Assembly (NCBI GenBank): GCA_963675665.1
Contig: OY776510.1
Coordinates: forward strand, 3,680,001 to 3,744,000
DNA: 64,000 nt
Direction: 5' to 3'
Source of the DNA: Spirochaetia bacterium
GTDB lineage: Bacteria; Spirochaetota; Spirochaetia; UBA9216
Positions 44,340 through 48,029 of this stretch are shown in pieces (the stretch's first letter is position 1; each line of letters starts with the position of its first letter). The position numbers were made by a program, and so were the translations under genes. The notes beneath the pieces are model-generated. The model did not search any database. It was not told the origin of the DNA and saw only the letters and a list, made by a program, of their open reading frames with translations.

Positions 44340-45145
44340 TGCAGAATAAAAACAGTAAAATTAATTTGAGAAATGGTATTATCGATTCACATTTTCACCT
44401 GTTTCATATGAAAAAACGGGGAATGAATCACCTTGAAATTATTGAACAATGTTTTGATAGCGGGCTTGAATATGCTCTTGATATTGGAATAAACCCCGAG
44501 AATTTTCAGGAAAGAATTAAAACAGCGTTAAAATATCCGGGACTTTACACAGCACATGGTTATTATCCGTCGGAATGTACCAGTAAGGAACTTGATTCCA
44601 GCCTTGCCTATCTTGAGAGCTGCCTTAGCAATGATTCAAAAGCATTGGCTCTCGGAGAAATAGGTTTTGATTTTTTTCATGAATACGGCAATAAAAGTTT
44701 GCAGGAAGCCCTGTTACGCGATCAGCTTAAAATTGCTGACAAACTTGATTTGCCGGTTATTATTCACAGTCGTGATGCTGAAGCAGAGACTCTGCAGATT
44801 CTCGCAAATGAAACTCCTTCCAGGGGCGGTATTATTCACTGTTTTTCCTACTCTGCTGAAACGGCTTTGAAATTTATTGATATGGGCTTTTATATATCTT
44901 TCGCCGGGAATCTGACTTATAAAAAGTCCAAAACTATCCAGCAGGCGGCGGCTTTGATTCCTGTTGACCGCATTCTGCTTGAAACAGATGCCCCTTACCT
45001 GAGTCCGCAAAAAGTACGAGGACTTATGAATCATCCCGGCTATATCGGCTATACCTATGATTGCCTGGCTGAAATAAAAAATATCAACATCGAAGAACTG
45101 ATACCTGTAATAAATAATAACTTTAAAACACTTTTCAGGTTATAA
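44339..45145 (+). CDS. TatD family DNase (YcfH-like)
   Basis: IDSHFH, GEIGFD, IHSRDA, IHCFS, LETDAPYLSP. Confidence 0.9.
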   Translation: MQNKNSKINLRNGIIDSHFHLFHMKKRGMNHLEIIEQCFDSGLEYALDIGINPENFQERIKTALKYPGLYTAHGYYPSECTSKELDSSLAYLESCLSNDSKALALGEIGFDFFHEYGNKSLQEALLRDQLKIADKLDLPVIIHSRDAEAETLQILANETPSRGGIIHCFSYSAETALKFIDMGFYISFAGNLTYKKSKTIQQAAALIPVDRILLETDAPYLSPQKVRGLMNHPGYIGYTYDCLAEIKNINIEELIPVINNNFKTLFRL

Positions 45146-45221
45146 TCCGGGAACCTCTGATATGATGTGACCCATGTCAAGTTAAAATATCCAGGTTTTA
45201 TCTATAAGATCCCCCCCCTGT

Positions 45222-45420
45222 CCAGGACAGGAAGAAAGATAGAACAACGTTTATGCGGCGATAGACCACTCTGATATTCGCGGATTGGTTACCGCAGGTC
45301 AATGGGATCGTCGGGAGCTGCCTCTGTCTAAAACCGAGGATCAATATTATTATTGCCTCATAGAGGTGCCGAGGGTTCTCCTTTATCACTGTTGTTGTTC
45401 TATCCATCCTTCTGTCCTGG
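45222..45420 (-). ncRNA. Candidate bridge/seek RNA of the IS1111-type element
   Basis: Long closing stems enclose two internal loops whose sequences match the target and the donor junction. Confidence 0.7.
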
Positions 45421-45444
45421 TAGCTTATTAACCAACTATCGAAG

Positions 45445-46548
45445 TCATGCGACTTCTGTTCTACCTACCATCATTCCCCAAATAAATCCTGATAATTCTC
45501 TGGCAACTGCCGTAACAGTTTTCTGAGGGCATACCCCTCTACGAATCATCCTGAAATATTTCTTACTCAACCTTCTGCCGGCTTTATCAGCATAAGCTAT
45601 TGTTTCAGCAGATTGTCCTTTCCTTCTCGCTGTCAGTCGTTTCGATGGCGAATACCTTTGGTAATGCCAGCTTGATTCCACTAACAGCCGTCGTAGCCTG
45701 GAGTTGTCGGCCTTCGTAATCCCGCCAAGCTTCCGGCCCTCTCCGCTTGAGTATTCTGACGGCACAAGTCCAAGATACGCCATGAAGGATTCCGCTTTTT
45801 TAAATCTTCTGAAATCTCCTATCTCGCATACAAATGTTAATGCTGTTAATGTCTCTATACCTTTGAAACATCGAAGCCGGGATACCCTTTCTTTATATCT
45901 GTCTTCAGCAGCAATCTCTTCTATTTTTTCCTGCAACCGTTCAATCTTTTCCTCTAATTCCACAATCGCAAGATAATATTCTTTTAAAACTTCTTTATGC
46001 ATTACCTGTTCAAACTGCAAGTTTTTCAACCAGGTTCGATGCGCCCCTGTCCAGTACTTTTTCCCAATATCATATTTCTTCCCGTTCCTTAGCAGAAACT
46101 GTAAGAGCCTCTGTTTCTGTTTCCTCAAATCAATTTTCATATCGTTACACATCCTCATGTAATCACGAACTGATTCATCTGTGCGTGTCGGTATATTCAC
46201 CGGTGTTATTTCCTGATTCCTTAATGCTCTGGCTAATTTGACTGCATCCCTCTTGTCTGTCTTTATTCGGTCTCCGGGTTTCCTCGGCAATAATGATGGT
46301 GCTGCTACGTAACAGATAATTCCCATATCTTCAAGTAATCTATAAAGTGTAAATCCTGTAGGGCCTGCTTCGTAACAACACAGAATATTTTCTCCATTCT
46401 CTTTAAGTCGCTTGAAGAATCTTTTAATATTTCCGGGTTCGTTCCTGAGCTCTCTTTCAAACTCAGGATTCTGATAATTATCTCTGAATACCGCTACTGC
46501 GATTGATTCCTTGTGGACATCCATCCCTACATAAATTACACTATTCAT
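45445..46548 (-). CDS. IS110 family DEDD transposase/recombinase
   Basis: YVGMDVHK, CYEAGPTG, KTDKRDA (RuvC-like DEDD); LGLVPSEYSSG catalytic Ser motif; GGAGG RBS. Confidence 0.95.
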   Translation of the reverse strand: MNSVIYVGMDVHKESIAVAVFRDNYQNPEFERELRNEPGNIKRFFKRLKENGENILCCYEAGPTGFTLYRLLEDMGIICYVAAPSLLPRKPGDRIKTDKRDAVKLARALRNQEITPVNIPTRTDESVRDYMRMCNDMKIDLRKQKQRLLQFLLRNGKKYDIGKKYWTGAHRTWLKNLQFEQVMHKEVLKEYYLAIVELEEKIERLQEKIEEIAAEDRYKERVSRLRCFKGIETLTALTFVCEIGDFRRFKKAESFMAYLGLVPSEYSSGEGRKLGGITKADNSRLRRLLVESSWHYQRYSPSKRLTARRKGQSAETIAYADKAGRRLSKKYFRMIRRGVCPQKTVTAVARELSGFIWGMMVGRTEVA

Positions 46549-46652
46549 AGTGGCCTCCGTTCCTTTGTATGTGGCGTGTCTGCGCTTTGCCATTAGCCAT
46601 TGTGTAGGCTAATCCACGATTTTGCAAACACGGCGGTCACTTCATATTGTCT

Positions 46653-46790
46653 AATAACCCTAAATTGGGCTTATTAGAGGTTCCTTGGAGTTTATTTATT
46701 TCCTTATCAGTCAATAAATAAACATCCAGTACATCTAAGGAAGACTTCGAAAACTAAAGTTTTATAAAACTGCAGTTTTTAGAAGTCCCC
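46653..46790. repeat. REP-like palindrome cluster (IS target hairpin plus a degenerate copy)
   Basis: Reconstituted GGAACCTCTAATAA-N13-TTATTAGAGGTTCC; then GTTTATTTATT/AATAAATAAAC; then GACTTCGAAAACT..AGTTTTTAGAAGTC. Confidence 0.65.
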
Positions 46791-46796
46791 ATCCGT

Positions 46797-48029
46797 TTAT
46801 TCATCAAGTATTACAAGCTCAACCCTTCTGTTTACTGCACGTCCTTCATCTGTTGAATTATCCGCTAATGGTTCATCGCCGCCCCGCCCTTCATAAATAA
46901 AAACCTGCGGCAGCATGCCCAGTGCAGTAAGCTCATTTATTACAGTCAGCGCGCGCTGCTCTGATAAAACATACTGGCTTTCCTTTGTTCCGATATCCGC
47001 AGTATGTCCTATCACAAGAATCTTCTTTACATCAAGGCTGTTCAGAACATCAAAAATTGACTTAATCCTGTTCCTTTCTTCAGGCAGAATTTCAACAGAA
47101 TCAGGAACAAAATGCAAATTCTGAATACTTAGGGCTATACCCTCGGCTTTTTCAATTACTTCAACATCAGTCAGATCGGCAAGTTCCAGGCTCTTTTCCG
47201 TTTTCCCGGCAACGTCAACTCTATCCATTCCGATAATGTCATTATACCAGGTCAGAATAAAGCCGGAATGTTCTCTGACTCTCCCGCTGAAATACAAATA
47301 CTGTTCATCAAGCTGATCACGAATAAATATGGAAGACCTGTCTTCATCATCAATAGTTATAGTAAGCAGATGTTTTCCTGAAATCTGTTTCAAATCCGGA
47401 TCGTTCATACTGGAATCTCCAGGTTTATAACGCATTGCATACTGTGCGGTGATGAAATGCTTTGGCCCTGTTTTTGTCTCTTTCAACCCGTCATAGCGGT
47501 ATTCACAGTAAAATTTTACCCTGGTGTATTTACCGTTGTTGTCCGGATCTACAATCCGCTCTCCGTAATCTTTCCATTTGTCACCCGGAAGTACCTCTTC
47601 AGGAGAAAAGACCGGAAAACTTCGAAGAACAGGGACTACCTGATCCGGCCCGGTACGATAATGTCCCTGATCGTCGATCAGGATTTCACAATATTCATTG
47701 AGATTAACCGGATTAGCAATCAATCTTGTATCCTGTTTTGATGCTTCAAAAACATAGTAATTGCCGGCATACTGTGAATAACCGTCTTCATACCACATAT
47801 ACTGAAGGACCGCTCTTGATTCGTTATAGGTTAAACCTGCATAATTTCCGTTCTCAGTAACCCGTATATTTGAACGTTCAATTATTTTCAGCTTGTTCGA
47901 GCTTCCGAACATAAAGAGAACAGCTTCTTCAGAATATAAGTTCTGAAGCACGATAGAGGATAAGATAATCAACAAAACTGTAAAAAAAAGGTTCCTTCTG
48001 CGAAGGAACCTGAAAATGTATCTATACAT
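46797..48029 (-). CDS. OmpA family protein
   Basis: C-terminal IGHTADIG, LSEQRA, NRRVE peptidoglycan-binding domain; signal peptide. Confidence 0.85.
   Translation of the reverse strand: MYRYIFRFLRRRNLFFTVLLIILSSIVLQNLYSEEAVLFMFGSSNKLKIIERSNIRVTENGNYAGLTYNESRAVLQYMWYEDGYSQYAGNYYVFEASKQDTRLIANPVNLNEYCEILIDDQGHYRTGPDQVVPVLRSFPVFSPEEVLPGDKWKDYGERIVDPDNNGKYTRVKFYCEYRYDGLKETKTGPKHFITAQYAMRYKPGDSSMNDPDLKQISGKHLLTITIDDEDRSSIFIRDQLDEQYLYFSGRVREHSGFILTWYNDIIGMDRVDVAGKTEKSLELADLTDVEVIEKAEGIALSIQNLHFVPDSVEILPEERNRIKSIFDVLNSLDVKKILVIGHTADIGTKESQYVLSEQRALTVINELTALGMLPQVFIYEGRGGDEPLADNSTDEGRAVNRRVELVILDE

Follow-up and report, generated by a model that had tools for sequence, protein, structure and literature searches.

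Does the insertion sequence (IS) that splits a hairpin resembling a repetitive extragenic palindromic (REP) element in a spirochaete genome carry its own guide RNA, and can the sites selected by such an RNA be read from it? The question is raised by an IS110-family element located in a stretch of 64,000 nucleotides from the Spirochaetia bacterium assembly GCA_963675665.1 (contig OY776510.1, positions 3,680,001 to 3,744,000 of the forward strand), which is here called the window and in which all coordinates are given unless they are stated in megabases or belong to the whole contig. A first-pass annotation made from the letters of the window had proposed an IS1111-type element with a bridge RNA or seekRNA encoded 3′ of the transposase gene, and every sequence feature listed in it is found at its place. 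The reading reached here, held with a probability of roughly 0.9, is that of an autonomous-type IS110-family element of IS1111-type organisation, which encodes a DEDD/serine recombinase and, 3′ of its gene, a guide RNA of about 200 nt for both the target and the ends of the element. The mechanism has been known since 2024, and the element is a good new example rather than a new system. Published systems are cited from excerpts of the respective papers (PMC11208160, PMC11208158 and PMC11187229), and likenesses to them are to be read within those excerpts.

Insertion site, ends and copies of the element

On the plus strand, the sequence after the left half-target GGAACCT-CT continues as GATATGATGTGACC..., and the far junction reads ...TTCATATTGT-CT at 46641-46652, followed by the flank AATAACCCTAAATTGGGCTTATTAGAGGTTCC; the core of this right junction is the CT at 46651-46652 between ...ATTGT and AATAACC... 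(Table 1). With the element removed, the flanks pair as a hairpin with a 14-bp stem, which places the element in the left arm of the hairpin, at the CT, and bears out the earlier proposal of a palindrome split at a CT core. The tips carry no terminal inverted repeats, and no target duplication extends beyond the core. The proposed 13-bp sub-terminal inverted repeats are likewise present, set 1 and 3 bases in from the ends when the core is excluded, and their length lies within the IS1111-group range of 7-17 bp.

The genome, which consists of one contig of 5.15 Mb, contains seven copies of the element, each exactly 1494 bp long and with one differing base overall, and in addition one diverged relative, referred to as rel, with 68% nucleotide identity and a different site. 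All seven copies are inserted at the core dinucleotide, between ...CT and CT..., with one core's worth of bases shared. Their targets follow the pattern (G)G(A/C)ACCT-CT followed by AA(A/T)A, with the left flank [G/-]G[A/C]ACCT-CT in six of the seven. Six copies occupy the same position of related REP-like hairpins, and the seventh lies in AACCT-CT-AAAG, beside another small hairpin. The REP-like hairpin family is found at 13 genomic places, five of them adjoining IS copies. The element is a multi-copy one and appears to have been active recently.

The sole long open frame inside the element lies on the minus strand at 45445-46593, and its start was placed at 46548 from the relatives, which begin at the same ATG, and from a GGAGG site. 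The protein contains the Pfam domains DEDD_Tnp_IS110 (PF01548, E = 2.6e-13), N-terminal and RuvC-like, and Transposase_20 (PF02371, E = 1.3e-20) in the C-terminal part, and it scores 234.4 bits, at a cut-off of 140, with the NCBIfam equivalog model NF033542, 'IS110 family RNA-guided transposase', the name of which agrees with the view of the first-pass annotation that the class is already described. The motifs GMDVHK, CYEAG, KTDKRDA and YSSGEG, which supply the D, E, D and D residues and the serine of the SG pair, align with the IS621 chain 8wt6_A, and the GL.P....SG motif of the C-terminal domain is present as GLVPSEYSSG from residue 260.

Table 1 Features of the insertion sequence and its flanks, in window coordinates.
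Feature	Position	Strand	Remarks
Left half-target, GGAACCT + core CT	45150..45158	+	left arm of REP-like hairpin
IS110-family insertion sequence	45159..46652	-	1494 bp counting one CT core; transposase and RNA both on the minus strand
Sub-terminal inverted repeat, right-donor side	45160..45172	.	13 nt, 12/13 (92%) complementary to 46635-46647
TTGACA, predicted -35 of circle-only promoter	45176..45181	-	would form with joined ends
Bridge/seek RNA body (predicted)	45222..45420	-	199 nt, bounded by the two strands of the basal stem
AG after right donor guide	45269..45270	-	complementary to the CT ending the left target
Right donor guide + core, AUAUCAG	45271..45277	-	3′ side of loop 2; partner of CT+GATAT at the end of the element
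Left donor guide (putative), AUUGACCU	45296..45303	-	5′ side of loop 2; irregular match to ATTGT-CT
ACA after right target guide	45325..45327	-	complementary to the left donor's final TGT; handshake position
Right target guide + core, UUUUAG	45328..45333	-	3′ side of loop 1; partner of CT+AAAA or CT+AATA
Left target guide + core, GGCACCUCU	45362..45370	-	5′ side of loop 1
Transposase/recombinase gene	45445..46548	-	367 aa from ATG; GGAGG ribosome-binding site upstream
Codon 281, motif ITK.GN	45706..45708	-	Asp in the window copy; the other six have Gly
Sub-terminal inverted repeat, left-donor side	46635..46647	.	partner of 45160-45172
GACAAT, predicted -10 of circle-junction promoter	46646..46651	-	second core base and the element's first five bases
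Right half-target AATAACC... and remainder of REP-like hairpin	46653..46684	+

A conserved RNA fold downstream of the transposase gene

Downstream of the transposase gene (tnp) the element has a non-coding tail of 286 nt (45159-45444), compared with about 104 nt upstream of it, which corresponds well to the non-coding region of some 290 nt described initially. The minimum-energy fold of the minus strand consists of a basal stem, formed by 45420-45394 with 45248-45222 (27 nt, 85% paired), and two arms, each built of a stem, an internal loop and a hairpin; its energy of -75.8 kcal/mol (z = -2.5) is equalled by 1 of 200 shuffles.

Relatives of the element were collected from three sources, of which the first was a scan of species genomes seeded with the protein (6 loci, of which 4 have the full tail), the second a search of metagenome contigs with a degenerate pattern of the donor-loop scaffold in which both donor guides were left free (30 loci), and the third a search with the protein through 401 genomes of the phylum, with matches in 14, the window's own among them. 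The first two sources together with the window copy and rel comprise 36 elements, and after removal of three with truncated RNA, five duplicates and three rearranged ones (L028, L029 and L035), 25 were aligned. On this alignment RNAalifold finds the same architecture with 46 pairs, of which 20 show changes on both sides. The cells of the consensus structure are paired in 96.5% of cases, as opposed to 43-55% when the partners are slid by one to three columns; this fraction is somewhat favoured by the derivation of the structure from the same alignment, but the margin is still large. With slid partners the number of double-change pairs falls to 6-10, and the covariation score is reached by none of 500 shuffles. 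Both the folding of 45222-45420 and the compensatory changes among relatives therefore agree with the minus-strand fold around two internal loops that had been proposed at the outset, and comparison of the sequences supports the anatomy of a bridge RNA or seekRNA for the 3′ tail.

A search of 44800-47000 against Rfam 15 with E values up to 10 matched no bridge RNA family, and the lone hit, to RUF2, was a chance match beyond the element's borders, at 19.8 bits where the gathering score is 90. A scan of viral contigs with the donor-loop scaffold pattern gave 0 matches.

Target guides follow the insertion sites

In the bridge RNA of IS621, the 5′ side of each of two internal loops base-pairs with the DNA's bottom strand and the 3′ side with its top strand, with the core included (PMC11208160, in the cited excerpt), and in the seekRNAs of IS1111 elements the guide complementary to the tnp-sense or 'top' strand stands 5′ of the guide for the other strand (PMC11187229, likewise). 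The order in the present element is that of IS1111, since GGCACCUCU, complementary to the minus, tnp-sense strand, comes first and UUUUAG, complementary to the plus strand, second; GGCACCUCU has the same sense as the plus strand of the target and would therefore anneal to the target's bottom strand. A perfect match to the left guide is found at copy 2 (GGCACCT), and perfect matches to the right guide at copies 4-6. The paralogue rel is inserted in AAAAAAG-CT followed by ACGG, and its loop 1 carries UAAAAAG-CU and CCGU-AG, while the scaffold is otherwise almost unchanged and loop 2 differs by one base.

The correspondence extends to the relatives. The seven bases of the left target guide before the core, usable in 26 of the 36 elements and unique in 23, match the element's own flank at 106 of 161 positions, with a permuted mean of 44.3, and the respective seven bases of the right target guide, usable and unique in 20 of the 36, do so at 71 of 140 positions, with a permuted mean of 50.0; the observed values were reached by 0/100,000 permutations for either guide, figures which overstate the significance because the relatives are phylogenetically non-independent. 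Along target positions 1-7, the left guide matches in 3, 7, 13, 19, 21, 21 and 22 of the 23 unique pairs, and the right guide, counted from the core, in 19, 20, 11, 10, 3, 6 and 2 of the 20, which suggests that about five left-target and four right-target bases are read in addition to the core. The guide-target covariation among homologs that had been set beforehand as a check is thus found for both target guides. The first-pass annotation had seen the left guide as identical to the left target and core at eight of nine positions, and UUUUAG as the partner of the core and right target; both assignments gain from the re-programmed paralogue and from the 23 and 20 unique guide-flank pairs, respectively.

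It could be argued that such matches arise by chance and that the tail is nothing else than a structured 3′ untranslated region or a terminator, as the guides are short, with some 5+2 and 4+2 informative bases, and no Rfam family is matched. Such an explanation is contradicted by the guide-flank covariation and by the occurrence, in the same genome, of a paralogue with both guides altered to suit its own site; the tail, moreover, has no terminator-like site on the minus strand. The probability left to coincidence is negligible, and the tail is best read as a guide RNA directed by loop 1 to the target.

A few relatives provide further observations on the choice of target. One element with a 51% identical recombinase (L052, genome G367) shares its insertion motif, GGAACCT-CT, AAAA, with the window element, and its guides, GUCACCU-CU and AUUUU-AG, match the site; its end and donor guide are altered, with an A beside the core. 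Three elements of another genome (L060, L066 and L072 in G270, with a 39% identical recombinase) have TT in place of CT at the RNA-side junction and CT at the other, and their RNA has UU in the left target guide and AG in the right one, which looks, from the sequence, like a natural recombination between a donor with a CT core and a target with a TT core. Some insertions fit poorly, namely L018 with 3/7 and L014/L041 with 3/7, and these may be off-target events.

Recognition of the element ends

The right donor guide AUAUCAG is the same in sense as the RNA-sense 3′ end of the element, ...CATATC-AG. Most relatives share that end, so that the match alone tests nothing, and the informative cases are those in which the end has changed. 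Among 25 unique rows (L057, for which no end was found, was left out, and two rows were assigned by eye), the base beside the core is C in both the RNA and the DNA in 20, whereas the pairs A/A, T/T and G/G occur once each and C in the RNA with G in the DNA twice. The end ...ATAAG of L052 is accompanied by the guide AUAUAAG, ...ATTAG of L058 by AUAUUAG, and ...ATGAG of L061 by AUAUGAG. The original assignment of AUAUCAG as the guide for the donor core and end is therefore supported by covariation in four states, with two exceptions. For the left donor guide the comparison is less clear. Its AUUG is conserved in relatives, the L013-type relatives have AUUGUC with six matching bases, and in the Sinorhizobium plasmid relative L048 a T-to-G change of the left donor is matched by a U-to-G change of the guide, which is one compensatory case. 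The left donor guide is thus plausible from the sequence, and it is the least secure part of the model; the initial caution that it fits only with a bulge was appropriate, as it is the weakest of the guides and its match is irregular.

A further point concerns the bases next to the right guides. In IS621, strand exchange is followed by pairing of left-donor positions 6-7 with the two bases that come 3′ of the right target guide, and left-target positions 6-7 are the partners of the two bases 3′ of the right donor guide (PMC11208158, in the cited excerpt). The corresponding ACA in loop 1 is conserved as A-C-N in most relatives, and given that the element ends hardly vary, its complementarity to TGT is an agreement and not a test of covariation. 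In loop 2, the AG fits all seven targets of the genome's own copies. As a general feature, the donor-loop handshake was rejected, with 13 of 50 matching where 11.7 are expected, a value that was equalled or exceeded in 37,781 of 100,000 permutations. Of the handshake pairings proposed in the first-pass annotation, the fit of AG to the element's own targets thus stands, whereas beside the right donor guide the relatives show no covariation, and the dinucleotide does not behave as a programmed feature.

Several observations weigh against the overall reading, and most of them concern the donor loop. The left donor guide AUUGACCU can be matched to ATTGT-CT only if AUUG is followed by a mismatch, and the C after it by a bulge and U, and the mismatched position is A, U, G or C depending on the lineage, with the DNA always T. 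The right donor guide of rel has one mismatch, and the metagenomic elements L020 and L044, with the end ...CATATGAG and the guide AUCUCAG (5/7), carry an end G against the guide C together with a second mismatch and yet occupy different sites; the lineage has either moved despite the mismatches or uses another register. The donor-loop handshake dinucleotide is fixed by lineage among the relatives whatever the target. Apart from loop 2, and besides the shared ancestry of the relatives mentioned above, the transcription, the ends and the processing of the RNA are ones that we infer, and the recombinase of the window copy may be impaired or inactive and dependent on its siblings, judging from the substitution G281D in an otherwise invariant motif.

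Taken to the full, the points about loop 2 would lead to a seekRNA for the target only, in which loop 1 picks the target, the protein reads the ends via the sub-terminal repeats, and loop 2 is a structural or protein-binding part with an accidental resemblance to the ends. An 82-nt RNA of ISEc11 with the target matches alone sufficed for movement, and the authors of that study emphasise that IS1111 elements may recognise their ends differently (PMC11187229, both statements from the excerpt). The free variation of one position in the irregular left guide against an invariant DNA base would also be expected under this model, and loop 2, being mostly invariant because the ends are invariant, gives little test of it. 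It is however hard to reconcile with the right-donor base, for which the guide follows each of the four states apart from the two exceptions, or with the compensatory change in L048, and published covariance models place donor loops in the RNAs of the IS1111 group too (PMC11208160, as excerpted). An RNA for the target only is accordingly improbable, and a guide RNA with both target and donor loops is the preferred interpretation.

Within that interpretation, the two ends may still be recognised in different ways, the right donor by base pairing and the left mainly by the protein via the sub-terminal repeat. The suggestion stems from the four-nucleotide match of the left guide, its unpaired position beside the core, where four bases face an invariant T, and the bulge at the core. 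Such asymmetry in the clade is rather unlikely. If true, it would represent a donor-binding logic unlike that of IS621 and would bear on how IS1111-type elements recognise their ends.

The recombinase of the window copy and its leader

The only base that differs among the seven copies is 45707, which converts Gly281 to Asp in the ITK.GN motif of the window copy. Residue 281 could be read in 68 loci, with Gly in 64 of them, Asp in two that are the window copy itself, a stop in one and one out of register; no relative whose frame is intact at this point lacks the glycine. It is therefore conceivable, at somewhat less than even odds, that the window copy is a crippled, non-autonomous one, with the RNA and the ends intact and the recombinase inactivated by G281D, which moves with the enzyme of its siblings. 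The impairment is, however, a prediction from the conservation of the motif, and Asp281 could also be an assembly or consensus error, since the public contigs show the majority base; these contigs cannot decide the base at 45707 because all seven copies are collapsed in them. In any case such a defect would be limited to one copy and is compatible with the element being, as a type, autonomous and RNA-guided.

Upstream of the gene, the leader at about 46549-46634 on the minus strand, between the left-donor repeat and the start of tnp, is near-identical in the element and in the 68% identical relative. It is conserved in more distant relatives too and far better kept than the adjoining coding sequence. 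That the leader outlasts the coding sequence suggests a function, for example as a protein-binding site or a leader structure.

Predicted expression and life cycle

No sigma-70-like promoter was found on the minus strand inside the element, and on the plus strand there is a single such hit, where 3.1 are expected in shuffles. When the ends are joined, TTGACA and GACAAT come to stand 17 nt apart and agree with the consensus at 10 of 12 positions. In 16 of 20 distinct tails of relatives, TTGACA likewise lies 24-25 nt from the 3′ end. A promoter formed only in a circular intermediate is thus predicted.

By analogy with the characterised systems, the following scheme can be proposed for transcription, processing, formation of the ribonucleoprotein and strand exchange. 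The element would excise as a circle, and the joining of its ends would create the promoter that drives the recombinase gene and the RNA downstream of it. The RNA would fold into the basal stem and two arms with an internal loop in each, of which loop 1 would bind the target and loop 2 the circle junction, with AUAUC-AG pairing to the core and right donor and AUUG.C.U, less regularly, to the left donor. The recombinase would then exchange strands at the CT core, and insertion would take place without target duplication into AACCT-CT-AA(A/T)A, here mostly in one arm of the REP-like hairpin family.

Distribution of the copies in the genome

The seven copies and rel are located near 0.554, 2.046, 2.621, 2.819, 3.725, 4.457, 4.981 and 5.030 Mb, and in all eight tnp is on the minus strand of the contig. 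The chance of one shared strand is about 1 in 128. A leading/lagging-strand bias was rejected as the cause of the shared strand, as by GC skew the origin and the terminus lie near 0.84 and 3.54 Mb, respectively, with three copies on one replichore and five on the other. Unoccupied REP-like hairpins that fit the target guides are present at contig positions 4993746-4993821, 2935099-2935170 and 386485-386520, among others, and the one at about 2.935 Mb is a perfect match to the left guide. Since well-matching sites are still empty, the element has not saturated its sites.

Among the sequencing runs searched, the stretch is present in four DNA runs of one study and in no RNA run. In the contigs of these four runs, neither an empty-site joint across the element nor a circle junction was found, and the only joint listed in them, which links 45180 to 45251 across 65 other letters, represents the diverged paralogue. 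The word depth in run X1 is 114 for the element and 15.8 for the flank, a ratio which fits a multi-copy repeat and is not to be taken as a copy number.

Comparison with known systems

The closest parallels in layout are the IS1111 elements with a 3′ seekRNA, namely ISEc11, ISPa11, ISKpn4 and ISPst6 (PMC11187229, here and in the next two sentences within its excerpt). The present element resembles them in the long non-coding DNA that lies downstream of tnp, in sub-terminal inverted repeats, in the GL.P....SG motif and in the order of the guides, as well as in the natural re-direction between close relatives. With ISPa11 it shares the targeting of a REP-type palindrome, and with IS1111-family elements a promoter present only in the circle, which is predicted here; in contrast, its recombinase of 367 aa is longer than the 330-350 aa stated for the family. 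A further difference from the IS1111 family is that a single RNA of about 200 nt with a 27-nt basal stem carries both loops. The alignment with an IS4321-family transposase covers residues 1-293 of the 367 aa at only 25% identity (pairwise E = 2e-16). The IS110-family recombinase and IS1111-type layout named in the first-pass annotation hold in view of the domains, the sub-terminal repeats, the downstream RNA and the guide order, and membership of the IS1111 group falls short of certain owing to the length of the protein and its low identity to the IS4321-family enzyme.

The similarity of the recombinase to that of IS621 is weak (phmmer E = 2e-9, mostly over residues 195-290). Nevertheless, the two systems are alike in the two internal loops, the CT core, the aligned catalytic D/E/D/D and serine residues and the complementarity of the bases 3′ of the right target guide to left-donor positions beside the core (PMC11208160, PMC11208158, in excerpt; PDB 8wt6). 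They differ in that the RNA of the window element lies 3′ of the gene and would be transcribed towards the right-donor end, whereas that of IS621 lies 5′ of the gene. Other differences from IS621 are the long sub-terminal repeats, the irregular left donor guide, and the placement of the loops, which occupy the two arms of a junction with a long closing stem.

Among named relatives, the nearest is an element on the Leptospira interrogans plasmid NZ_CP136246.1 (L047), annotated as 'IS110 family transposase', which was the best plasmid hit and has a 47% identical recombinase. It may or may not be IS1533, an element that PMC11187229 counts in the IS1111 family. It shares the RNA scaffold downstream of tnp, the donor-loop hairpin and the AAUAUCAG guide with the window element, and differs in the sub-terminal repeats, the left-donor sequence and the target guides. 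The same element is also found in genomes G061, G081 and G107, which are labelled as the same phylum as the window's genome, and this Leptospira-type relative is in keeping with the earlier description of the window element as a spirochaetal one. The copy in G081 (L054) has about 40 extra bases in the target-arm hairpin in comparison with its sibling L047. Close relatives, with 50-76% identity, are present on contigs labelled Spirochaetales, Vulcanimicrobiota, Dehalococcoidales and archaeon.

Implications

The understanding of the mechanism is not changed by the element, which adds a clean, multi-copy IS1111-type example from a genome of the spirochaete phylum to the known RNA-guided recombinases. 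The irregularity of its left donor guide is a small clue to end recognition in IS1111-type elements. In practical terms, the element may be of use for annotation and for the prediction of insertion sites, and also as a candidate for a compact recombinase, its protein being 367 aa and its RNA about 200 nt long. For the family as a whole, the approximately 25 relatives constitute a natural series of repeated re-programming of the target guides, with the scaffold almost constant, and this series reveals the guide positions that matter in this clade together with four-state evidence for the reading of the right donor by the RNA.

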